From positions 1 through 24,738 of the forward strand of contig CAZDVN010000003.1 in NCBI GenBank assembly GCA_964508955.1: DNA of 24,738 nt. The letters run 5' to 3'. The translations under genes were made by a program, and so were the position numbers. The notes under the pieces are model-generated. The model ran no database searches. It was given only the letters and a program-made list of their open reading frames with translations, and had not been told where the DNA came from. The stretch comes from an uncultured Candidatus Saccharibacteria bacterium. Lineage in GTDB: Bacteria; Patescibacteriota; Minisyncoccia; Minisyncoccales; Minisyncoccaceae. Positions 1 to 24,450 of the stretch are shown piece by piece (the stretch's first letter is position 1; each line of letters starts with the position of its first letter).

Positions 1-75
1 TGGCAGGGGCGGAAGGATTCGAACCCTCAAGACCTGTTTTGGAGACAGGCAGTTTACCGTTAAGCTTACGCCCCT
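1..75 (-). tRNA. tRNA-Trp (CCA), 3' CCA encoded
   Basis: Reverse complement folds as a cloverleaf: acceptor AGGGGCG/CGCCCCT, anticodon arm CCTGT-CTCCAAA-ACAGG, T-loop TTCGAAT, ending GCCA at window position 1. Confidence 0.96.
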
Positions 76-361: not shown

Positions 362-383
362 ATTTCCCCCATCGGTCTTTATG

Positions 384-466
384 TGGGCGAGGAGGGACTT
401 GCACCCCCGAAGGCCGAAGCCATCTGATTTACAGTCAGACCCGTTTGACTACTTTGGTACTCGCCC
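384..466 (-). tRNA. tRNA-Tyr (GTA), long variable arm
   Basis: GGGCGAG/CTCGCCC acceptor, anticodon arm TCTGA-CTGTAAA-TCAGA, variable hairpin GGCTTCGGCC, variant T-loop TGCAAGT. Confidence 0.95.
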
Positions 467-3691: not shown

Positions 3692-4302
3692 AAGGGTTTA
3701 AAGCTTTTTCTGTGTATCTCGCATTTTCCATATTTTTTAATATTTTCCATATGTTCTTTTGTCCCATATCCTTTATGTTTCTTGAAATTATATTGAGAAT
3801 ATTTTTTGTCATACAGAAGCATTATTTCATCTCTTTTTACTTTTGCAATTATACTGGCAGTACTAACTGAAAATACTTTTTTATCAGCACCAATAATTGA
3901 TTTTTGTTCAATTTCTATGTCAATTTTCATGTTTCCATCAAGAATTAAAAAATCGACCTTAATATTGTTTCTTTCTTCTAAATCTTTAATCGCCAAGTTC
4001 ATTGCTAATTTTGTTGCTTCCAGTATGTTAATCTCATCAATTATTTTCTCTGAAACAATGCCTACCCCCCATTTGAATCTTTTATCATTGATAATTTGCT
4101 CATAAACTTCTTTTCTTTTATTCTCCAGTAATAGCTTAGAATCTTTTATAAGCTTGTTTTTTCTAAGATCAAGAAAATCTTTCTCAGAAACAAAAACAGC
4201 TCCCGCAGATACTGGTCCAGCAAGAGGTCCCCTTCCTGCCTCATCAATTCCGGTAACATACTTAAAACCTTCTTTCCAAAGTTTTTCTTCTTCTTGTAAC
4301 AT
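3688..4302 (-). CDS. rnhB: Ribonuclease HII
   Basis: GIDEAGRGPLAGPV, DSK, LDG, ASIIAKVKRD, HKGYGT, HRKSF. Confidence 0.97.
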   Translation of the reverse strand: MLQEEEKLWKEGFKYVTGIDEAGRGPLAGPVSAGAVFVSEKDFLDLRKNKLIKDSKLLLENKRKEVYEQIINDKRFKWGVGIVSEKIIDEINILEATKLAMNLAIKDLEERNNIKVDFLILDGNMKIDIEIEQKSIIGADKKVFSVSTASIIAKVKRDEIMLLYDKKYSQYNFKKHKGYGTKEHMENIKKYGKCEIHRKSFKPF

Positions 4303-4348
4303 ACTTAAATTTGATATATTATATATAGTATAATCATAATATTAGCAT
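4303..4348. promoter_or_regulatory. Divergent promoter region with back-to-back -10 boxes
   Basis: 46-bp AT-rich gap; TATAAT on minus at 4318-4323 and TATAAT on plus at 4329-4334. No convincing -35 at correct spacing. Confidence 0.45.
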
Positions 4349-4999
4349 ATGAAGAGTCAAAAGGACAAAAAAACTTTAGGCCAAAGGGAAATTGTAACAG
4401 AAATTAATCTAGCAGAGAAAGAATGCAGGCCCGTTAATCTTTCAAATAGTATCATCCCAGACCTTTCTTCTATAGACAGAATTAAATATGGACTCAATTT
4501 GGAAAATTCTGAAGTACTAATCTCCGTATTTTTAGGAGAAATAATTATTTCGGGAGATTTAAACATGAAAGGAATTGAAATAAAGGGTTCTCTTTATTTG
4601 GGCAATTCTAGTATAAAAGAAGATTTAATTCTTGAAAATGCGATTATTAATGGAGCCGTTAATTTAGTTGGGTCAAAAATAAAAGGCAGCGTTAATGCAA
4701 AAGGGATTAAGACAAGTGGATTTTTAAGCTTAAGCAAGTCAGAAATAGGAGGAGATGTTATATTGGAAAATGCAGAAATTAAAAACGCTGAATACGATGA
4801 CTTGATAGTCAGAGGAGATTTATTTATAGATACGGCTGACATTAAAGGTTCTCTTAATTTGGGAAAGACAAAAACAGAGGGAGTAATTAATTTAGAGAAA
4901 ACTCAAATTGGAAACAATATTATTTTAACGGGAGCAGAAAGTAAAAAAGGAGAAATAGACACAAACATGATTAAGATTGAGGGAAAGAAAATTATCTAA
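4349..4999 (+). CDS. Hypothetical protein with 11-residue repeats (predicted beta-solenoid; resembles the 11-aa-period pentapeptide-repeat families)
   Basis: Consensus I-x-G-x-[LV]-x-L-x-x-[AST]-x recurring at aa 45, 56, 67, 78, 89, 100, 111, 122, 133, then 154, 165, 176, 187. No signal peptide or TM segment seen. Confidence 0.75.
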   Translation: MKSQKDKKTLGQREIVTEINLAEKECRPVNLSNSIIPDLSSIDRIKYGLNLENSEVLISVFLGEIIISGDLNMKGIEIKGSLYLGNSSIKEDLILENAIINGAVNLVGSKIKGSVNAKGIKTSGFLSLSKSEIGGDVILENAEIKNAEYDDLIVRGDLFIDTADIKGSLNLGKTKTEGVINLEKTQIGNNIILTGAESKKGEIDTNMIKIEGKKII

Positions 5000-5007
5000 A
5001 AGACAAA

Positions 5008-8000
5008 ATGAACAAAAAATTTACACATTTGCATTTACATTCCCACTATTCTCTTTTAGATGGATTATCAAAAATTGATGATATTTTGGATAGAGTAAAA
5101 GAATTAGGAATGGATTCGGTCGCACTAACAGACCATGGCGTTATGTATGGTTCCATTGAGTTTTATGAAAAAGCTAAAGCAAAAGGAATAAAGCCTATCA
5201 TTGGTTGTGAAATCTATGAAGCATCAACAAGCATGGATGGAAAGAGTCCTGACCCAGAAAACAAAAGACATCACCTTGTTCTTTTAGTAAAAAACGAAAA
5301 AGGCTATAACAACTTAGTTAAAATTGTAACCGAAGCTCATTTGAGAGGTTTTTATTATAAGCCAAGAGTTGATTTAGAATTTTTAGAAAAATACTCTGAA
5401 GGACTTATTGCAACTACAGCTTGTTTGCAAGGAAGAATTCCTCATCTTTTATTGTCAAACAGAAAAGAAGAAGCAGAAAAAATGGCTTTAAGATACCAGA
5501 AAATTTTTGGCAAGGATAATTTTTATCTTGAATTACAACATCATCCAGGAATCCCTGAACAAAAAAGAGTGAATGATATGATGATTGATTTAAGTAGAAA
5601 AACTGGAATACCTCTTATTGCTACTAATGATTGTCATTATATAAATAAAGATGATGCTGAAGCTCAAGATGTATTAATGTTAATTAATACAGGTGCCGAT
5701 ATTAACGACAAAGAAAGACTATCAATGAAAATAGATGATTTTAGTATAAAGTCAGCTGAAGAAATGATAGAAGACTTTAAAGATGTTCCTGAGGCGATAG
5801 AAAATACATTTAAGATTGCAGAGGCTTGTAATTTAGAATTAAAATTAGGAGAATTTAATCTTCCCACTTTTGATGTTCCGGAAGGTAAAACAGTGGAGGG
5901 CTATTTAAGAGAATTATGTTATTTAGGTATTGAAAAAAAATACAATATTAAGTCAGAGGAATTAGATAATATTAATAAGTCTGTCTCAGAGGGAAAAGAA
6001 ATAAAAGAAATAAAAGATGAGAAACTTAAAGAAGTAATTGAAAGAATGGAATATGAATTAAGCGTTATTAATAAAACCGGTTTCCCCGGATATTTTTTAA
6101 TTGTTCAAGATTTTGTTTCTTGGGCTAAAAGTAATCGAATTGTCGTTGGCCCTGGAAGAGGCTCTGCCGGAGGATCAATTGTTGCTTACCTAACAAATAT
6201 TACCAATGTAGACCCTTTAAAATACGATTTATATTTTCAAAGATTTTTAAATCCCGACAGAATCTCTCCTCCTGATATTGACTTAGACTTTGCTGATAAA
6301 AGAAGAGATGAGGTTATTAATTATGTTGCTGAGAAATATGGAAGAGATAAAGTTGCTCAAATTATTACATTTGGAACTATGGCTGGCAGAGCAAGTATCA
6401 GAGATGTTGGGAGAGCTCTTGGATATCAATATTCATACTGTGACAAATTAGCAAAATTAATACCAACAGGATTTGATTTAAAAGATACTTTAGAAAAGAT
6501 AGAAGAATTTAAAGATTTATATGAGAATGACAGTGATGCAAAAAAACTAATTGATTTAGCCTTAAAGATAGAAGGTTGTGCCAGGCATGCTTCAACTCAT
6601 GCTTGTGGCGTTGTTATCTCAAGTTCATCTCTTGAAAAAATAGTACCAACTCAACATCCTACTCAAAATGAAAATTCAATAGTTACCCAATATGAAATGC
6701 ATGCCGTTGAATCAATGGGACTTCTTAAGGTTGATTTTTTAGGACTTAAAAACTTAACAATTATTGAAGAAACATTAAAAAGAATATATGCCGTTAGGGG
6801 GATGAATGTTGATATTGATAATATTCCCCTTGACGATGAAAAAACTTTTAAATTACTTCAGTCTGGAGATTGTATCGGGGTTTTTCAATTAGAGTCTGGA
6901 GGGATGAGAAGATACTTAAAACAATTAAAACCAACTGAAATTGAAGATATTATTGCCATGGTTTCATTGTATCGCCCTGGACCGATGCAAAATATTCCTG
7001 GATATATTAGTGGAAAAAATAATATAGATAACGTTCACTATATTCATCCAAAACTAAAGCCAATATTAGAATCAACTTACGGGATTCCTGTTTACCAAGA
7101 ACAAGTCATGCGTATTGCTCAAGAGATGGCAGGATTCACCTTAGCCGAAGCAGATATACTGAGAAAGGCGATAGGTAAGAAAATAGAAAAACTATTGATG
7201 GAGCAAGAGGATAAGTTCGTTTCAGGAATGAAAAAAAATAATATTAGTAAGGAGATTGCCTTAGAAATTTGGCACTGGATAGAGCCCTTTGCTAGATATT
7301 CATTTAATAAAAGTCATGCTGCTTGCTATGCGATTATTGCTTACCAAACAGCTTACCTAAAAGCAAACTATCCAGTTGAATATATGGCAGCAATATTGAC
7401 CGCTGAACAATCTGACCTAGACAGAATAGCTATCCTTATTGAAGAGTGTAAAAAAATGAAGCTAGAAGTTTTGCCTCCAGAAATTAACGAAAGCTTTAGT
7501 AACTTTAGTGTTGTTCCAGAAAAATATAAAGTACGTTTTGGTTTATCCGCTATTAAAAATGTTGGATATAATGTTGTTGAATTAATTATCAACGAAAGAA
7601 AGGATAAGGGAGACTTTAAGTCAATCCAAGATTTTATTTCTCGCGTAGACAGTAAAGTTTTAAACAAGAAGTCTTTGGAAAGCTTAACAAGGGCTGGAGT
7701 TTTTGATAATTTAAAAGAAAGAAACCAAATTCTCTTTAATCTAGAAAATCTCTTAGAATGGTCAAAAAGCAATCAAAGAATAAAAGATAGTGGGCAAATA
7801 GGATTATTTGGAAGTTCTGTTGATACTGAAATTAAATTAAATGAGACTGAAGAAATGAAAGATGAAGATAAGCTAACTTGGGAAAAAGAATTATTAGGTC
7901 TTTACATTTCTGGGCATCCCTTAGAAAAACATCGAAGCTTTCTTGAAAATCAAGCTGCATCTATAAGAAAAATTAATGTTGACTTAGCCTTCTCCGGAGA

Positions 8001-8292
8001 CTTCAATAGAGATCCTTATGAAAAATACGTATGTAGTGGAGAGACGATTACGATTGGAGGAATTATATCTAACATTAAAAAAATACTGACGCGCAAGGGA
8101 GATCCGATGATGTTTATAAAACTCCAGGATTTAACGGATACAATTGAAGTGGTAATATTCCCTTCAACATTAAAGAAAAATACTTACGCCTTGGAAGAAA
8201 ATAAAATAGTCTCCATCACAGGAAAAACAGATGTCAAAGACGGTTCTCCCAAAATAATCGCTAGCTCAATTCAAGAAATATTAGAATCATAA
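5008..8292 (+). CDS. dnaE: DNA polymerase III alpha subunit
   Basis: PHP domain (HLHLHSHYSLLDG, TDHG, GCE), GPGRGSAGGS, catalytic PDIDLDF, KVDFLGL, YSFNKSHA, clamp-binding-like QIGLF and a C-terminal OB fold. No intein visible. Confidence 0.98.
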   Translation: MNKKFTHLHLHSHYSLLDGLSKIDDILDRVKELGMDSVALTDHGVMYGSIEFYEKAKAKGIKPIIGCEIYEASTSMDGKSPDPENKRHHLVLLVKNEKGYNNLVKIVTEAHLRGFYYKPRVDLEFLEKYSEGLIATTACLQGRIPHLLLSNRKEEAEKMALRYQKIFGKDNFYLELQHHPGIPEQKRVNDMMIDLSRKTGIPLIATNDCHYINKDDAEAQDVLMLINTGADINDKERLSMKIDDFSIKSAEEMIEDFKDVPEAIENTFKIAEACNLELKLGEFNLPTFDVPEGKTVEGYLRELCYLGIEKKYNIKSEELDNINKSVSEGKEIKEIKDEKLKEVIERMEYELSVINKTGFPGYFLIVQDFVSWAKSNRIVVGPGRGSAGGSIVAYLTNITNVDPLKYDLYFQRFLNPDRISPPDIDLDFADKRRDEVINYVAEKYGRDKVAQIITFGTMAGRASIRDVGRALGYQYSYCDKLAKLIPTGFDLKDTLEKIEEFKDLYENDSDAKKLIDLALKIEGCARHASTHACGVVISSSSLEKIVPTQHPTQNENSIVTQYEMHAVESMGLLKVDFLGLKNLTIIEETLKRIYAVRGMNVDIDNIPLDDEKTFKLLQSGDCIGVFQLESGGMRRYLKQLKPTEIEDIIAMVSLYRPGPMQNIPGYISGKNNIDNVHYIHPKLKPILESTYGIPVYQEQVMRIAQEMAGFTLAEADILRKAIGKKIEKLLMEQEDKFVSGMKKNNISKEIALEIWHWIEPFARYSFNKSHAACYAIIAYQTAYLKANYPVEYMAAILTAEQSDLDRIAILIEECKKMKLEVLPPEINESFSNFSVVPEKYKVRFGLSAIKNVGYNVVELIINERKDKGDFKSIQDFISRVDSKVLNKKSLESLTRAGVFDNLKERNQILFNLENLLEWSKSNQRIKDSGQIGLFGSSVDTEIKLNETEEMKDEDKLTWEKELLGLYISGHPLEKHRSFLENQAASIRKINVDLAFSGDFNRDPYEKYVCSGETITIGGIISNIKKILTRKGDPMMFIKLQDLTDTIEVVIFPSTLKKNTYALEENKIVSITGKTDVKDGSPKIIASSIQEILES

Positions 8293-8304
8293 AATAATAA
8301 AAAA

Positions 8305-10047
8305 ATGGATTTAGAAAAAATTAAACACTCATTATCTTATGTTCTTGCTCATGCAGTTCAAGATCTTTTTGATGATGTAAAATTTGGAATTGGCCCTGCT
8401 ATTGAAAATGGTTTCTATTACGATATGGAAATTGACCTGAAAGAAGAAGACTTAGAAAGGATTGAGAAAAGAATGAAAGAAATTATTAAGAGTGGAATAT
8501 CTTTTGAATATAGCGAAGTATCAAAAGAAGAAGCTAGAAAGATTTTTAATAGCCAACCATACAAACTGGAACTGATTGATGAGATAGAGGAAGATAAGGT
8601 TTCTATATATAAGCTTGGTAACTTTATAGATCTATGCAAGGGGCCTCATGTGGAGTCTTTGAAAGAAATAAATTCAGAATCTTTTAAATTAAACAAGTTA
8701 GCCGGAGCTTATTGGAAAGGAGATGAAAAAAATAAGATGTTAACTAGAGTTTATGGCTTATCTTTTGAGAATAAAGAAAAACTAAATGAATACTTAAAAT
8801 TATTAGAAGAAGCCGAAAAAAGAGACCACAGAAAATTAGGGAAAGAACTAGATTTATTTCACTCAGAAGAAGAAGTTGGGATAGGCCTTATTTTATGGCA
8901 CCCAAAAGGAGCAATGATATGGAGAATTATAGAAGACTTCTGGTACAAAAAACATCTTGAGAATGGTTATGATTTAGTTAGAACTCCTCACATAGGAAAT
9001 AAAAGATTATGGGAACGCTCAGGACACTGGGGATTTTATTCAGGAAGTATGTACCCACCATTAGAAGCTGGTCAATCATTAGAAGAGGCTCAACAAGATA
9101 AAAAAGTGAAAGACTCAGAACAATTTTTATTGAAGCCAATGAATTGTCCTTTTCATGTTTCTATATACAATAATTCTCCTCGATCATACAGGGACCTTCC
9201 CTTGCGTTGGGCTGAAGCAGCAACAGTTTATAGGTTTGAGAAAAAAGGAGAACTTTCTGGCTTAACTAGAGTCAGAGGTTTCACTCAAGATGACGCTCAT
9301 ATTATTTGCAGAAAAGACCAAGTTGAAGATGAGCTTAAAAAAGTTATTGATTTTATTCTTTTTATTTATAAAGCATTTGGATTTGAAGAAGACAAGGTTA
9401 ATGTTTATCTTTCTTTAAGAAATGATCAAGAAAAAGAAAAATATGCTGGACCAGATGAAGGATGGAATTTTTCAGAATCAGTTTTAAGAAAAGTTGCCAT
9501 TGAAAAAAATCTTAATTTTAAGGAAGAAAAAGGAGAGGCTGCTTTTTATGGTCCCAAGCTTGATTTTAAAATTAAAGATGTCTTAGGAAGAGAATGGCAA
9601 TGCTCTACCCTTCAATTTGATTTTAATCTTCCAGAAAGATTTAGCATGAGTTTTACTAATTCAGAAGGAGAAAAAGAGCAACCATATATGCTCCACCGAG
9701 CCCTATTTGGGTCCTTTGAAAGGTTTATAGGCTTACTAATTGAGCATTATGCAGGAGCTTTTCCTTTCTGGTTGTCCCCTGTTCAAATAAAAATTATTCC
9801 TGTTTCTGAAAATCATCTTGAATATGCAAAAATTGTTGCAGAAAAGTTAAAAGACTATAGAGTTAAGATAGATGAAAACAATGAAACAATTGGAAAAAAG
9901 ATAAGAGCTGGAGAGATGGAAAAAATTCCTTATCTAATTGTTGTTGGAGATAAAGAGATAGAAAATAAGACTGTGAATGTTAGGCAAAGAGGAAAAATTG
10001 AATTAGGAGAAATGTCTGTTCTTGATTTAATAAAATCTTTTGAGTAA
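8305..10047 (+). CDS. thrS: Threonyl-tRNA synthetase (no N-terminal TGS domain)
   Basis: DLCKGPHV, GAYWKGDE, RDHRKLG, KPMNCP, RVRGFTQDDAH, YGPKLD, HRALFGSFERF and an anticodon-binding domain. Confidence 0.98.
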   Translation: MDLEKIKHSLSYVLAHAVQDLFDDVKFGIGPAIENGFYYDMEIDLKEEDLERIEKRMKEIIKSGISFEYSEVSKEEARKIFNSQPYKLELIDEIEEDKVSIYKLGNFIDLCKGPHVESLKEINSESFKLNKLAGAYWKGDEKNKMLTRVYGLSFENKEKLNEYLKLLEEAEKRDHRKLGKELDLFHSEEEVGIGLILWHPKGAMIWRIIEDFWYKKHLENGYDLVRTPHIGNKRLWERSGHWGFYSGSMYPPLEAGQSLEEAQQDKKVKDSEQFLLKPMNCPFHVSIYNNSPRSYRDLPLRWAEAATVYRFEKKGELSGLTRVRGFTQDDAHIICRKDQVEDELKKVIDFILFIYKAFGFEEDKVNVYLSLRNDQEKEKYAGPDEGWNFSESVLRKVAIEKNLNFKEEKGEAAFYGPKLDFKIKDVLGREWQCSTLQFDFNLPERFSMSFTNSEGEKEQPYMLHRALFGSFERFIGLLIEHYAGAFPFWLSPVQIKIIPVSENHLEYAKIVAEKLKDYRVKIDENNETIGKKIRAGEMEKIPYLIVVGDKEIENKTVNVRQRGKIELGEMSVLDLIKSFE

Positions 10048-12117
10048 ATGTTAAAATATCATATTATTACTTTTGGCTGTCAGATGAATATGTCTGACTC
10101 AGAAAGAATTTCTAGTCTTTTAGAAAAAACTGGATATACCAAAGCTTCACAAGTGAAAGAGGCTGATTTAATTATCTTAAATATGTGCTCTGTGAGACAA
10201 TCAGCAGTAGATAGAGTTTATGGTCTTATTCCCCAACTAAGGAGGTCAAAAGCTAAGATTATCGCGACAGGATGCATTTTAGAAGAAGACAGGATAAAAC
10301 TAAGAGAACGTGTTGATCTTTTAATAGATAAAAAAGATATTCCAAGAATTTTTTCTAAAAACACTGCTTTTTTGAAGATAGTCCCAAATTACTCAAGTAC
10401 AATCCAAGCATTTGTTCCTATATCTGAAGGATGTAGTAATTTTTGTACTTATTGCGCAGTTCCCTACACTAGAGGAAAGTTAATTTCTAGAAATTACAAA
10501 GACATAATTAAAGAAATTAAAAGCCTGGTAAAAAATAACTTTAAAGAAATTTGGCTTTTGGGAGAAAACGTTAATGATTATATTTACAAAGGATTAGGTT
10601 TTAGTGATTTGATAAAAGAAATTGACAAAATAGAAGGAAACTTTTGGGTTAGATTTACAAGCCCAAATCCAAAAGATTTTTCTAAAAAGACGATAGAATC
10701 TTTTAGTAAAAGCTTAAAATTTGCTCCATATATAAATCTCCCTCTTCAATCAGGAGACGATTCCATCTTGAAAAAAATGAACAGGCCCTATACCGGTAAA
10801 AAATACTTGAAATTAGTAAAAGAAATTAGAGAATCTTTCAAGAAAAATAGAGAAGGACTAGAGGGAGAAATAAGTATTTCCACGGACATTATTGTTGGCT
10901 TTCCAGGAGAGACTAATTCTCAATTTATTAACACAAGAAATATTTTTTCTAAGGTTTTTTTTGAAATGGCGTATATTTCTCAATATTCCCCTCGCCCACA
11001 ATCACTTTCTTTTAAGGAAATGCCAGACGATGTTACCAAAAAAGAAAAAAAGGAAAGAGAATATATATTAAATGAGATACTTAAGAAAACAGCTTTAAAG
11101 CAAAACAAAAAATTCCTAAACAAAGAAGTTGATGTTTTAGTTTTAGAAAAAAACAATAACTATTATGATGGAAGAACTAGGCATAATAAAGCCGTAAGAT
11201 TTAAATCAGATAAAGATTTATTAGGAAAATTCGTTAAGGTAAAAGTTAATAAAGTAACTTCTTGGAACTTTGAAGGAAATCTTATCAAGCCCAAATTAGT
11301 TGTTATCTCAGGTCCAACAGCTTCAGGTAAGACTGACCTAGGAATTGCTTTGGCTACTAAATTTAATGGAGAGATTATTTCTGCTGACTCAAGGTTAATA
11401 TATAAAGGAATGGATATCGGAACTGCTAAACCAAAGAATATCAAAGGTATACCTCATCACATGATAGATATTATAGACCCTGATGAAGATTTTAATGCTG
11501 CCTTATTCAAAGAAAAAGCTATTGAAGCAATAGATTCTATAATAGAAAGAGGAAAACAGCCTTTTCTTGTAGGAGGAACTGGATTATATATAAAAGCAAT
11601 AGTTGATAATCTAAATTTTCCTAAGATTAAAACTGATCAAAAACTTAGAGAAGATTTAGAAAAAAAGAACCTTGAGGAAATATTTTTAATTTATAAAAAT
11701 ATTGACGAAGAAGGTTCAAAAATAATAGATACAAAAAATAAAAGAAGACTTATAAGAGCTATAGAAGTTTCTCTCGCCCTTAATGAAAGCTTCTTTAAGG
11801 AAAGAAAAGGAGAAGAACTATATGACGTTACTCATCTAGGTATTAAAACAAATAGCGAGGAACTTAAAAAAAGAATTGAAAAAAGGGTCAATAAGATGAT
11901 GAAAGATGGCCTAGAAAAAGAAGTAAAAAAACTATACAAGAAATATAGCCCTGAAATTCCTTCTTTAAAAACTATTGGGTATCAAGAGTGGAGAGATTAT
12001 TTTGATAAAAAAATAACTATAGAAGAGTTAAAAGAAAGAATCGTTTTAAATACTGTAAAATTTTCCAAAAGACAAATAACTTGGTTCAAGAAAGATAAAA
12101 AAATTAAGTGGATTTAG
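10048..12117 (+). CDS. miaB/miaA: MiaB-MiaA fusion: tRNA ms2i6A37 methylthiotransferase (aa 1-~411) fused to tRNA dimethylallyltransferase (aa ~412-689)
   Basis: MiaB part: TFGCQMN, NMCSVR, TGC, radical-SAM CSNFCTYC, TDIIVGFPGET, TRAM domain. MiaA part: ISGPTASGKT, SADSRLIYKGMDIGTAKP, PHH, VGGTGLY, RRLIRAIEV, IGYQE, KRQITWF. One reading frame with no stop. Confidence 0.95.
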   Translation: MLKYHIITFGCQMNMSDSERISSLLEKTGYTKASQVKEADLIILNMCSVRQSAVDRVYGLIPQLRRSKAKIIATGCILEEDRIKLRERVDLLIDKKDIPRIFSKNTAFLKIVPNYSSTIQAFVPISEGCSNFCTYCAVPYTRGKLISRNYKDIIKEIKSLVKNNFKEIWLLGENVNDYIYKGLGFSDLIKEIDKIEGNFWVRFTSPNPKDFSKKTIESFSKSLKFAPYINLPLQSGDDSILKKMNRPYTGKKYLKLVKEIRESFKKNREGLEGEISISTDIIVGFPGETNSQFINTRNIFSKVFFEMAYISQYSPRPQSLSFKEMPDDVTKKEKKEREYILNEILKKTALKQNKKFLNKEVDVLVLEKNNNYYDGRTRHNKAVRFKSDKDLLGKFVKVKVNKVTSWNFEGNLIKPKLVVISGPTASGKTDLGIALATKFNGEIISADSRLIYKGMDIGTAKPKNIKGIPHHMIDIIDPDEDFNAALFKEKAIEAIDSIIERGKQPFLVGGTGLYIKAIVDNLNFPKIKTDQKLREDLEKKNLEEIFLIYKNIDEEGSKIIDTKNKRRLIRAIEVSLALNESFFKERKGEELYDVTHLGIKTNSEELKKRIEKRVNKMMKDGLEKEVKKLYKKYSPEIPSLKTIGYQEWRDYFDKKITIEELKERIVLNTVKFSKRQITWFKKDKKIKWI

Positions 12118-22333: not shown

Positions 22334-22339
22334 ATAATG

Positions 22340-22411
22340 TGCCAAAGATGGGAATCGAACCCATGACAACTCGCTTATGAAACGAGCGCTCTACCACTGA
22401 GCTACTCTGGC
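22340..22411 (-). tRNA. tRNA with CAT anticodon, non-initiator (elongator Met or Ile2)
   Basis: GCCAGAG/CTTTGGC fully paired acceptor, anticodon arm CTCGT-TTCATAA-GCGAG, T-loop TTCGATT. Confidence 0.9.
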
Positions 22412-22430
22412 GCCACATTATGAAAAAATG

Positions 22431-22501
22431 TTGCGGTTCCTGGAATTGCACCAGGGTCTCCAGCTTATGAGACTGGCGAGGTACTACTCCTCCAAACCGC
22501 T
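22431..22501 (-). tRNA. tRNA-Met (CAT), initiator-like but atypical
   Basis: AGCGGTT/AACCGCA acceptor with A1xA72 mismatch, A11:U24 pair, anticodon arm CCAGT-CTCATAA-GCTGG, T-loop TGCAATT. Confidence 0.88.
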
Positions 22502-22511
22502 ATATAAAACT

Positions 22512-22539
22512 ATTCTATCAAAAAATGAAATAAAATCAA
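22512..22539 (-). promoter_or_regulatory. Putative promoter for the tRNA(CAT)-tRNA(CAT)-tRNA-Asp cluster
   Basis: TTGATT (22534-22539), 16 nt, TGa-TAGAAT (22512-22517), 10 nt upstream of the first tRNA. Confidence 0.6.
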
Positions 22540-23039
22540 GTTATAATTTTTAATCTTCTCAACGCTTCTTCACATGAATCAAAAAACTTTTGAAGTTCTT
22601 CTATGTTGGCAACATAATTATGATTTGTTCTGGCTTCTTCTGAAAGGAGAGAAATCTTTTTTATTCCTTCTATGTCTGAAATGGGAGAATTACTAATCAT
22701 CTCCAAAATATCATCTCCTTTAATTTCTAAATTATTTAAAATATCTAAAAATAATTCCTCCATCATTATTATAGCCCTTCTATAATCTTTTTTATCTAAA
22801 AAAGAAGAAATTGATTTAGATCTTTTAGTAAAAGATTTTTCTTCTTTAACCTTGTTGGGATCTAAGAAATTACCAAGTCTTTCTTTGGAGTCTTTAATTA
22901 AAAATCCTGCCTTAACAATATAATAAAAAATAGCAAACAAAAAGAAAAGAGTTACTATTATAAACAAAAGCTTGAAAGGAAAAAGAAAGCTATAGAGCTC
23001 ACTTGATTCTAAAAAAGTTAAAACATTATTTGGCATCAT
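22536..23039 (-). CDS. Hypothetical single-pass membrane protein with a helical C-terminal domain
   Basis: Hydrophobic stretch FLFPFKLLFIIVTLFFLFAIFYYIV followed by a charged helical region. ATG at 23039/23036 overlaps the gatA stop; the ORF-track start at 23051 is a TTG. Confidence 0.7.
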   Translation of the reverse strand: MMPNNVLTFLESSELYSFLFPFKLLFIIVTLFFLFAIFYYIVKAGFLIKDSKERLGNFLDPNKVKEEKSFTKRSKSISSFLDKKDYRRAIIMMEELFLDILNNLEIKGDDILEMISNSPISDIEGIKKISLLSEEARTNHNYVANIEELQKFFDSCEEALRRLKIIT

Positions 23040-24450
23040 GATTTTTTTCAAATAGAAGAGCTGCGCTAATCAATTCTTTTTCTTTGAAAGGTTTCCCTAT
23101 TATTTGTAATCCTATAGGAAGGTTGCTAGAAGATTTTCCACAAGGCAAGGAAATTGCTGGTAATCCTGCTAAGTTTACAGAAACAGTATATATATCAGAT
23201 AAATAAGTAAACATTGGATTTTCTAATTTCTCTCCTATTTTATAAGGCAAGCATGGCGATGTGGGACCTATAATTACATCGGCCTTTTTAAAAGCCTCTT
23301 CAAAATCTTTTGCAATCAATGTTCTTACCTTCAGTGCCCTTTTGTAAAAAGCATCATAGTAACCCGAAGAAAGAACATAGGTTCCAAGCATGATTCTTTT
23401 TTTAACTTCTTCTCCAAAAAAGGTTGTTCGATTCTTTGCATAAAATTCTATTCCATCACTATTATCTGAACTTTCTCCATACCTTAATCCATCAAATCTA
23501 GCTAAATTAGCGCTAGCCTCAGCAGAAGTAATAATATAGTAACAAGCTAAAGCATATTCAGTGTGAGGCAAACTAATTTCCACTATCTCTGAATCAATAT
23601 TCTTATATAGCTCAATTGATTTTTCAATAGCATCTTTAACCTCGCTATCTAATCCTTCTATAAAATATTCTTTAGGAACTCCTATCCTAATCTTTTGATT
23701 AACTTCTTGCTTTTCTTCATAGTCAATGGTAGTGGAGTCTTTTTCGTCTAAGCCTTTAATGGATTCAAAAACTATTTGAGAATCAGAAACATTTTTTGTT
23801 ATTGGACCAATTTGATCTAATGATGAAGCAAAAGCAATAGCTCCATTCCTTGAAACTGATCCATAAGTAGGCTTTAAGCCCACTACACCACAAAATGAAG
23901 AAGGCTGTCTAATAGAACCCCCTGTATCAGTTCCTAAGGCATAAACACACATATCTGCAGAAACAGCAGCAGCTGAACCACCAGAAGAGCCACCAGGGAC
24001 TCTTTCAATATCATGAGGATTTTTAGTTGGAAAGAATGCAGATTTTTCACAAGAAGATCCCATCGCAAATTCATCTAAATTTGTTTTTCCTAGAAATACC
24101 GCACCCAAATCCTCTAATTTTTTAATTACAGTTGCATTGTATGGTGCAACATAGTTTTCTAAAAATTTTGAAGCGGCAGTACACTTAATATTTTCAATTA
24201 AAATATTATCTTTGACAGCACAAGGAATACCAGTTAATAAATGGGCCTTGCCGCTTTTAATCATCTCATCTGCTTTTTTTGCTTGATCAAGGGCTAAATC
24301 TTTATTTACAGTAATGTAAGCATTAATTGTCTTATCTTTATCCTCAATCAAATCTAAAAATGCTTTTGTTAATTCAACAGAAGTATATTCACCATTTTTT
24401 AAACATTCGTGGGCTTTTTCTATTGTTAAGTTTTCTAAATTAATCTTCAT
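23026..24450 (-). CDS. gatA: Asp/Glu-tRNA amidotransferase subunit A
   Basis: VKDNI, GKTNLDEFAMGSS, GGSSGGSAAAV, GTDTGGSIRQP, KPTYG, ANLARFDG, RIMLGT. Confidence 0.98.
   Translation of the reverse strand: MKINLENLTIEKAHECLKNGEYTSVELTKAFLDLIEDKDKTINAYITVNKDLALDQAKKADEMIKSGKAHLLTGIPCAVKDNILIENIKCTAASKFLENYVAPYNATVIKKLEDLGAVFLGKTNLDEFAMGSSCEKSAFFPTKNPHDIERVPGGSSGGSAAAVSADMCVYALGTDTGGSIRQPSSFCGVVGLKPTYGSVSRNGAIAFASSLDQIGPITKNVSDSQIVFESIKGLDEKDSTTIDYEEKQEVNQKIRIGVPKEYFIEGLDSEVKDAIEKSIELYKNIDSEIVEISLPHTEYALACYYIITSAEASANLARFDGLRYGESSDNSDGIEFYAKNRTTFFGEEVKKRIMLGTYVLSSGYYDAFYKRALKVRTLIAKDFEEAFKKADVIIGPTSPCLPYKIGEKLENPMFTYLSDIYTVSVNLAGLPAISLPCGKSSSNLPIGLQIIGKPFKEKELISAALLFEKNHDAK

Follow-up and report, generated by a model that had tools for sequence, protein, structure and literature searches.

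A MiaB–MiaA gene fusion in Patescibacteria that probably encodes a bifunctional tRNA-modifying enzyme

What does it mean for a bacterium to carry the enzymes of two consecutive steps of a tRNA modification in a single polypeptide? The question is raised by an open reading frame (ORF) on contig CAZDVN010000003.1 of an uncultured Candidatus Saccharibacteria bacterium (assembly GCA_964508955.1), of which positions 1 to 24,738 were analysed; this whole stretch of 24,738 bp, with a G+C content of 31%, is referred to here as the window. The miaB-miaA fusion gene occupies 10048..12117 on the + strand and consists of 689 codons and a TAA stop. A preliminary description had read it as one 689-residue ORF with a full MiaB followed by a full MiaA, and the open frame and its translation, the cysteines and motifs listed there, and the Pfam domains all bear this out. 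Judged by the families of the two enzymes, the C-terminal MiaA half would transfer the dimethylallyl group of dimethylallyl diphosphate (DMAPP) to N6 of A37 in the tRNAs for UNN codons, which present A36-A37-A38, yielding N6-dimethylallyladenosine (i6A), and the N-terminal MiaB half would then methylthiolate C2 of the base, using two [4Fe-4S] clusters and S-adenosylmethionine (SAM), to yield the 2-methylthio derivative ms2i6A37. We consider it highly probable, on comparative sequence grounds, that the gene is a genuine, vertically inherited fusion of the Patescibacteria, of the Paceibacteria/Minisyncoccales type within the Candidate Phyla Radiation (CPR), and that it encodes one bifunctional enzyme.

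Two complete enzymes in one reading frame

The MiaB/RimO family of methylthiotransferases is defined by a UPF0004 domain with three cysteines, a radical SAM domain with a CxxxCxxC motif and a C-terminal TRAM domain (PMC2952846), and the fusion protein contains all three, each above its Pfam gathering score. UPF0004, the MiaB N-terminal domain (PF00919, 82 bits), spans residues 3-88 (10054..10311, on the + strand like all features of the gene) and contributes Cys11, Cys47 and Cys76 as ligands of the auxiliary [4Fe-4S] cluster; the Radical_SAM core (PF04055, 83 bits) spans residues 123-296 (10414..10935), with C129xxxC133xxC136 in the form CSNFCTYC; and TRAM (PF01938, 25.7 bits against a cut-off of 21) spans residues 356-410 (11113..11277), where the β-strands predicted at 360-413 reach values of 92-96 in the predicted local distance difference test (pLDDT). 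These six cysteines are the only ones in the protein. The MiaA half, a tRNA dimethylallyltransferase, covers residues 414-689 (11287..12114) and includes a Pfam IPPT match at 451-683 (E = 2.6e-70). Its P-loop GPTASGKT extends from G422 to T429, DSRLIY begins at 447 with the catalytic-type pair D447-S448, and GGTGLY (G509GTGLY) and KRQITWF begin at 509 and 674; in the MiaB half, the motifs GEN and NLP begin at 172 and 230.

Both enzymes are complete within the fusion, with zero linker between them. The MiaB of Bacteroides uniformis, 457 residues long, is matched over its residues 20-453 by residues 4-411 of the fusion, and residues 414-688 align with MiaA of Bacillus halodurans from its residue 2 to its end (PDB 2QGN, 2.2e-60). 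The junction N-L-I-K-P-K (residues 411-416, 11278..11295; spanning peptide VTSWNFEGNLIKPK) leads from the last TRAM strand into strand β-1 of MiaA without a linker, a stop or a canonical start, just as had been described initially. In contrast to B. uniformis MiaB, the C-terminus of the MiaB part thus runs straight on into MiaA, and unlike stand-alone MiaA proteins, the fused MiaA half has no free N-terminus, with a turn of just two residues between the final strand of TRAM and its β-1. At the other end of the gene, the ATG at 10048 is the real start, because homologues align from residue 1-3 (KYHIITFGCQMN); the public gene call P0001 (675 residues) begins at Met15 and thereby deletes Cys11 of the auxiliary cluster. 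An antisense ORF of 93 residues with a TTG start (11163-11444, - strand) covers the fusion junction and is probably a chance frame.

Could the single frame nevertheless deliver a separate MiaA from an internal translation start? A Shine-Dalgarno-like GAAGGAA does lie 6 nt upstream of the ATC codon 413, which together with ATC420 is the sole, non-canonical, candidate start near the junction. However, the GAAGG is forced by conserved E-G residues, ATC is very rare as a start codon, and no in-frame ATG, GTG or TTG occurs between residues 350 and 434; the earliest, TTG435 and ATG455, both lie past the P-loop and would yield an inactive protein. An internal start was therefore rejected, and we regard it as a very remote prospect.

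As to the identity of the N-terminal half, the fusion scores 385-390 bits against the MiaB/RimO family model TIGR00089 (cut-off 251), with 390 bits for the N-terminal 411 residues. Against the MiaB equivalog TIGR01574, this half reaches 349.2 bits at a cut-off of 355.3 and so remains about 6 bits short. This shortfall could be taken to mean that the N-terminal half is another methylthiotransferase, MtaB-like and directed at 2-methylthio-N6-threonylcarbamoyladenosine (ms2t6A) or RimO-like, that became fused to MiaA by chance, and the tRNA-Thr and tRNA-Met of the window would indeed be substrates of the t6A type. Yet among the NCBIfam subfamily models MiaB (349 bits) ranks above MtaB (275 bits) and RimO (219 bits), the closest solved relatives are MiaB proteins by sequence and by fold, and a partner that is fused to MiaA, or consistently adjacent to it, is by classic criteria functionally linked to i6A. 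On the scores and the nearest PDB relatives, an MtaB or RimO identity was rejected; we rate it as very unlikely.

The likeness to B. uniformis MiaB (PDB 7MJV-7MJZ) consists in the UPF0004/radical SAM/TRAM layout, the six cluster cysteines and about 30% sequence identity, the fusions differing by a lineage-wide exchange of Q for E in LLGQNVN and of H for N in HLPxQSG. The MiaA half scores 280.5 bits against the equivalog TIGR00174 (cut-off 148.65), the match extending over positions 2-283 of the 288-position model within the C-terminal 278 residues, and shares the P-loop, DS(x)xxY, GGTGLY and KRQxTWF motifs with the structurally characterized MiaA proteins of B. halodurans (2QGN/3EXA) and Escherichia coli (2ZM5/3FOZ). 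Beside the P-loop, the aspartate of the DS motif and GGTGLY, the model described below would also provide the helical insertion domain by which MiaA clamps the anticodon stem.

An AlphaFold2 model of the fusion, built on 19 fused homologues, has a mean pLDDT of 84.5 and a predicted template modelling score (pTM) of 0.77. Superposition of the MiaB part on 7MJW/7MJX gives a template modelling (TM) score of 0.85 and a root mean square deviation of 2.7 Å, the scores among the B. uniformis MiaB structures being 0.84-0.85, while the MiaA part fits best on E. coli MiaA with bound tRNA (3FOZ/2ZM5; TM score 0.81, 2.6 Å); in this comparison with the folds of the PDB, no single chain covering both halves was found. 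The modelled junction, from the TRAM strand 407-413 through the MiaA strand β-1 at 416-421 to the P-loop, reaches pLDDT 92-96. As one rigid half could account for a TM score of at most about 0.6 (411 of 689 residues), the pTM of 0.77 implies that a fixed orientation of the domains is predicted, and the model thus points to a fixed geometry between the halves.

Distribution and origin of the fusion

Is the fusion a property of a lineage, or of this one genome only? Six contigs encode the identical protein, and for two of them, from JGI samples 3300039139 and 3300039165, the DNA matches the window at 100% identity along 7.3-8.0 kb. In a collection of 5.8 billion proteins, the best 120 clusters, ranging from 100% to 50% identity, all combine both domain sets in one protein (120/120), with lengths of 609-763 residues except for two shorter fragments. 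When the GTDB species representatives were scanned with aligned fusions as the query, 80 Patescibacteria loci were obtained, and in 51 of these one uninterrupted frame contains both halves, including Ca. Microsyncoccus archaeolyticus PMX.50 (Minisyncoccales), the complete Nealsonbacteria genome CP179889 and the 655-kb chromosome OZ246399. A first GTDB scan with a single protein as query had returned mostly distant, non-fused loci and is informative on the adjacency of miaB and miaA only. The early suspicion of a probable CPR genome is confirmed by the placement in the Patescibacteria, and the scenario in which all close relatives have separate genes does not apply.

An error of assembly or sequencing, or a recent loss of a stop or a frameshift between two genes that is private to this one genome, is suggested by the fact that in some relatives two genes are separated by just a single stop or a frame offset of 1 nt. 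Against it stand the identical sequence in independent samples and metagenome assemblies, the hundreds of diverged fused homologues, and the conservation of the residues at the junction, which leave such an explanation with practically no chance; it was rejected. Rejected as well were long, fusion-like open frames at the high-GC Actinomycetota loci L036, L037 and L060, which are alternative-frame artefacts. Among 8,553 matches at E ≤ 1e-30 to representatives clustered at 50% identity, fusions make up about 15-20 of the best 150, so that the architecture is, by its occurrence in sequence collections, a small, lineage-restricted share of all MiaB and MiaA proteins. With its single ORF lacking an internal canonical start, and its occurrence in 51 species representatives, the gene would encode two active, consecutive domains in one polypeptide.

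Conservation within the family was assessed on an alignment of 19 fusions sharing 54-83% identity. Invariant are the six cluster cysteines, the P-loop (G422/T424/K428), D447-S448, GGTGLY at 509-514, KRQ at 674-676 and the following W and F. The preliminary description had cautioned that the MiaB motifs GQN and HLP read GEN and NLP here: the variants are present, but decay is not what they indicate, as N230 is likewise invariant and position 173 is occupied by either E or Q; by this pattern, both are lineage-wide substitutions. In the crown clade of the tree described below, K-P-K/R is kept at the junction, and across the family the distance from the W-x-L-E-G motif of TRAM to the P-loop is about 13-22 residues.

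Taxon labels are unreliable for many of the metagenome-assembled genomes (MAGs) concerned. Locus L100 (DAOSDM010000004.1), labelled 'Candidatus Pacearchaeota archaeon', carries a typical fusion of the Paceibacteria type, and many third-party-annotation MAGs labelled Saccharibacteria among loci L082-L160 group by their genes with Paceibacterota/Minisyncoccales.

How could such a gene have arisen? While it had been assumed that miaA and miaB are normally unlinked, adjacent and co-directional miaB->miaA pairs are found in other Patescibacteria, in Atribacterota, Omnitrophota and Coriobacteriia (Olsenella, Tractidigestivibacter, Collinsella), and in one Faecalibacterium MAG. In ten of these loci the start of miaA overlaps the stop of miaB as ATGA (L141, L143, L151, L147, L158, L160, L010, L012, L066, L068); in four others a single in-frame stop is followed by an ATG a few codons on (L114, L118, L129, L002). 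Outside the Patescibacteria, the pairs of the Faecalibacterium MAG (L002, 7327-7335), the Atribacterota (L010/L012), and L020 and other Olsenella/Coriobacteriia likewise show a single stop or an ATGA/GTGA overlap. From this spread, the pair may be an old or recurrent operon. Its order and orientation are those of the fusion, and its overlap or stop lies exactly at the position of the fusion junction; in contrast to the two polypeptides of the coupled pairs, the lineage of the window has lost both stop and start. One point change or an indel of 1 nt turns either type of boundary into a fusion with the observed junction length. As the genes of relatives abut, with an ATGA overlap or one stop between them, the obvious origin is a translationally coupled miaB->miaA pair that lost the miaB stop or underwent a 1-nt shift, contrary to the earlier argument that the seamless junction speaks against a lost stop codon. 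The event is old and fixed.

On a neighbour-joining tree built from both halves in concatenation (76 taxa, 680 columns, 100 bootstraps), 38 fused and 7 split taxa together form a crown clade of 45 with a bootstrap value of 100. Nested among its fused lineages in 100/100 replicates is a monophyletic group (bootstrap 100) of five split Paceibacterota loci, L141, L143, L149, L150 and L151, whose genes meet near 4290-4305, with an ATGA overlap in three of them and a short overlap or gap in two. Since four or more parallel fusions would be far less parsimonious, a single re-splitting is favoured, and on the tree this group looks like a clean natural gene fission. Deeper in the tree, the fused L111, L112, L119, L125, L130, L138 and L133/137/140 are interleaved with split taxa. 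Together with the nested re-split clade, this interleaving indicates that the fused and the split state have been exchanged several times. Such repeated switching argues that the covalent link would not be mechanistically essential; it is as expected if the link is nearly neutral for proteins that are co-translated and probably cooperate anyway.

Catalysis, tRNA binding and the role of the covalent link

If the link is dispensable, what does the fusion accomplish? Its main effect would be a fixed 1:1 co-expression and the proximity of two enzymes that probably already cooperate on the same anticodon stem-loop. In solved complexes (7MJV, 3FOZ), MiaB and MiaA each engage this same stem-loop and flip out A37; since both take the same element, the loop can enter one pocket only after it has left the other. 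On its way between the two reactions, the tRNA would thus have to exit the MiaA pocket and re-dock in that of MiaB; true channelling is possible.

Several points weigh against the reading as a bifunctional enzyme whose fusion mainly secures co-expression. The N-terminal half misses the MiaB equivalog cut-off, as described above, and the tree is distance-based only. A fixed inter-domain geometry, if the model is correct, would fit a mechanism more integrated than simple co-expression. Finally, according to a published survey, few parcubacterial phyla possess genes of the mevalonate pathway, and the methylerythritol phosphate pathway is sparse in the CPR (PMC6107057). This reported rarity of de novo isoprenoid pathways in Parcubacteria, together with the lack of evidence for a DMAPP supply in the 24.7-kb window, invites the view that one of the halves has lost its catalytic activity and persists only as a module for tRNA binding or as a scaffold, for instance MiaA as a pseudo-enzyme in an organism without DMAPP. 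However, the P-loop, D447-S448, GGTGLY, KRQ and the six cluster cysteines are invariant in the 19 diverged fusions, the MiaA half scores 280 bits where the equivalog model asks for 149, and the substrate of MiaB is i6A, so that a dead MiaA would starve its partner; a dead half thus appears very improbable. The reading as an active bifunctional fusion implies, as the conserved motifs suggest, that ultra-small CPR genomes keep an anticodon-loop modification that depends on Fe-S clusters, SAM and DMAPP, and it raises the question of where their DMAPP comes from.

A different light is shed on the two halves by relatives in which the MiaB part lacks TRAM. These form a clade (L131/132/133/137/140, bootstrap 92), to which L129, L155 (Tagabacteria) and P0126 are to be added; a Pfam search of these eight proteins at E ≤ 1 found UPF0004, Radical_SAM and IPPT, and TRAM in none. 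Their MiaB stops just past the C-terminal helix of the radical SAM domain. Five are fused (L133:3001-4935, L137:2992-5043, L140:2989-4953, L155:2-1864 and P0126), with an interval to the MiaA P-loop of 51-57 residues compared with 101-123 in fusions with TRAM, and three are split with miaA closely downstream (L129:3004-4104, L131:3004-4020, L132:3001-4095). We know of no TRAM-less methylthiotransferase elsewhere. TRAM is regarded as the RNA clamp of the methylthiotransferases (PMC2952846), and that it was lost only in the company of a fused or neighbouring MiaA suggests tRNA binding by MiaA in its place, with the two enzymes acting as a physical unit. From this distribution, MiaA may serve MiaB as a tRNA-binding module, the reverse of the initial suggestion that TRAM could serve both halves. 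The protein of the window retains its TRAM.

Taken one step further, MiaB and MiaA could constitute a single tRNA-processing unit, a two-step assembly line for ms2i6A37 in which MiaA binds the tRNA and passes A37 on to the radical SAM site, and in which, in the TRAM-less clade, MiaA fully replaces TRAM. We put this forward tentatively, as conceivable rather than probable; if true, the replacement of TRAM by MiaA would be a way of recruiting substrates that is not known from any methylthiotransferase. The channelling envisaged in the preliminary description would amount to an obligate hand-off, in which the anticodon stem-loop passes from the MiaA to the MiaB pocket without release while one domain holds the body of the tRNA, such that i6A never accumulates. 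The zero-length, confidently modelled junction with the pTM of 0.77, the narrow range of distances between W-x-L-E-G and the P-loop, and the TRAM-less relatives that stay fused or adjacent to MiaA, as if MiaB relied on it for tRNA binding, could all be read in its favour. But MiaA and MiaB cannot hold the same anticodon stem-loop simultaneously, and fused and split states interconvert repeatedly, in one case by re-splitting into a normal ATGA-coupled pair, which renders the covalent link dispensable. An obligate hand-off is thus rather unlikely, and fixed co-expression with proximity remains our preferred account of the fusion.

The closest conceptual parallel, by analogy, would be MnmC, in which consecutive steps of a tRNA hypermodification are likewise fused with the second-step domain at the N-terminus. 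This bifunctional enzyme catalyses the last two steps in the synthesis of 5-methylaminomethyl-2-thiouridine at position 34 (mnm5s2U34), and its halves occur as stand-alone proteins in other bacteria. Its folds and chemistry are unrelated, comprising a flavin-adenine-dinucleotide-dependent oxidoreductase and a SAM methyltransferase that act on position 34 and not 37.

How new is the fusion? Full-text searches of a literature library, in which absence is no proof of absence, yielded no report of it; matches to 'miaAB' refer to double mutants and were discarded as candidates. Look-ups in a review of i6A (PMC5699536), a review of methylthio-cytokinins (PMC7680852) and a survey of gene fusions (PMC4921024) found no mention of it. 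Public databases, however, already contain the architecture many times over, named as one enzyme only, which lowers the novelty: the source names read 'MiaB', 'MiaA' or 'tRNA-2-methylthio-N6-dimethylallyladenosine synthase', and never bifunctional. The finding thus concerns a variant of known enzymes and a gap in annotation rather than a new system. Enzymes and pathway are textbook knowledge; chemically the fusion brings nothing new, and it only confirms that the two enzymes are functionally linked, as was known. Its value lies in the correction of hundreds of public proteins that carry the name of MiaB or MiaA alone, and in a natural, compact single-chain system for the passage of tRNA between two enzymes that both require the same A37 in its flipped-out form, with the natural split and TRAM-less versions as built-in controls.

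Genomic surroundings and candidate substrates

The fusion closes a run of co-directional genes on the + strand that is headed by an ORF of 216 residues (4349-4999), with a sub-threshold pentapeptide-repeat match only, and continues with dnaE (5008-8292) and the threonyl-tRNA synthetase gene thrS (8305..10047). The TAA stop of thrS abuts the ATG of the fusion (TAAATG, 10045-10050), and this contact suggests a putative translational coupling within the dnaE-thrS-miaBA part of the run. At its other end, the fusion gene overlaps the 3' end of a convergent gene for a P-type cation ATPase by 14 nt (12104-12117). The top promoter-like site on the + strand is located at 4311-4340; a scan for promoters and terminators around the fusion gene gave no enrichment over shuffled sequences.

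Two candidate substrates, already pointed out in the preliminary description and recovered here by ARAGORN, are encoded on the - strand of the window: tRNA-Trp(CCA) at 1..75, with the anticodon loop CUCCAAA, and tRNA-Tyr(GTA) at 383..466, with CUGUAAA, both presenting A36-A37-A38. They belong to a tRNA-Tyr/Thr/Trp cluster at 1-466, beside which lies trmD (500-1165, - strand), as part of a block of trmD, a KH-protein gene and rpsP; it encodes the tRNA 1-methylguanosine-37 (m1G37) methyltransferase, which also acts on position 37. The other genes of the window are housekeeping genes (trmD, rpsP, rnc, nusB, rnhB, gatA, gatB, tmk, dcd, rplK, nusG and gyrB). An ORF of 171 residues without a Pfam match (22536-23051, - strand) is situated between a tRNA cluster and gatA, and two tRNA genes with a CAT anticodon are found at 22339-22411 and 22430-22501 on the - strand.

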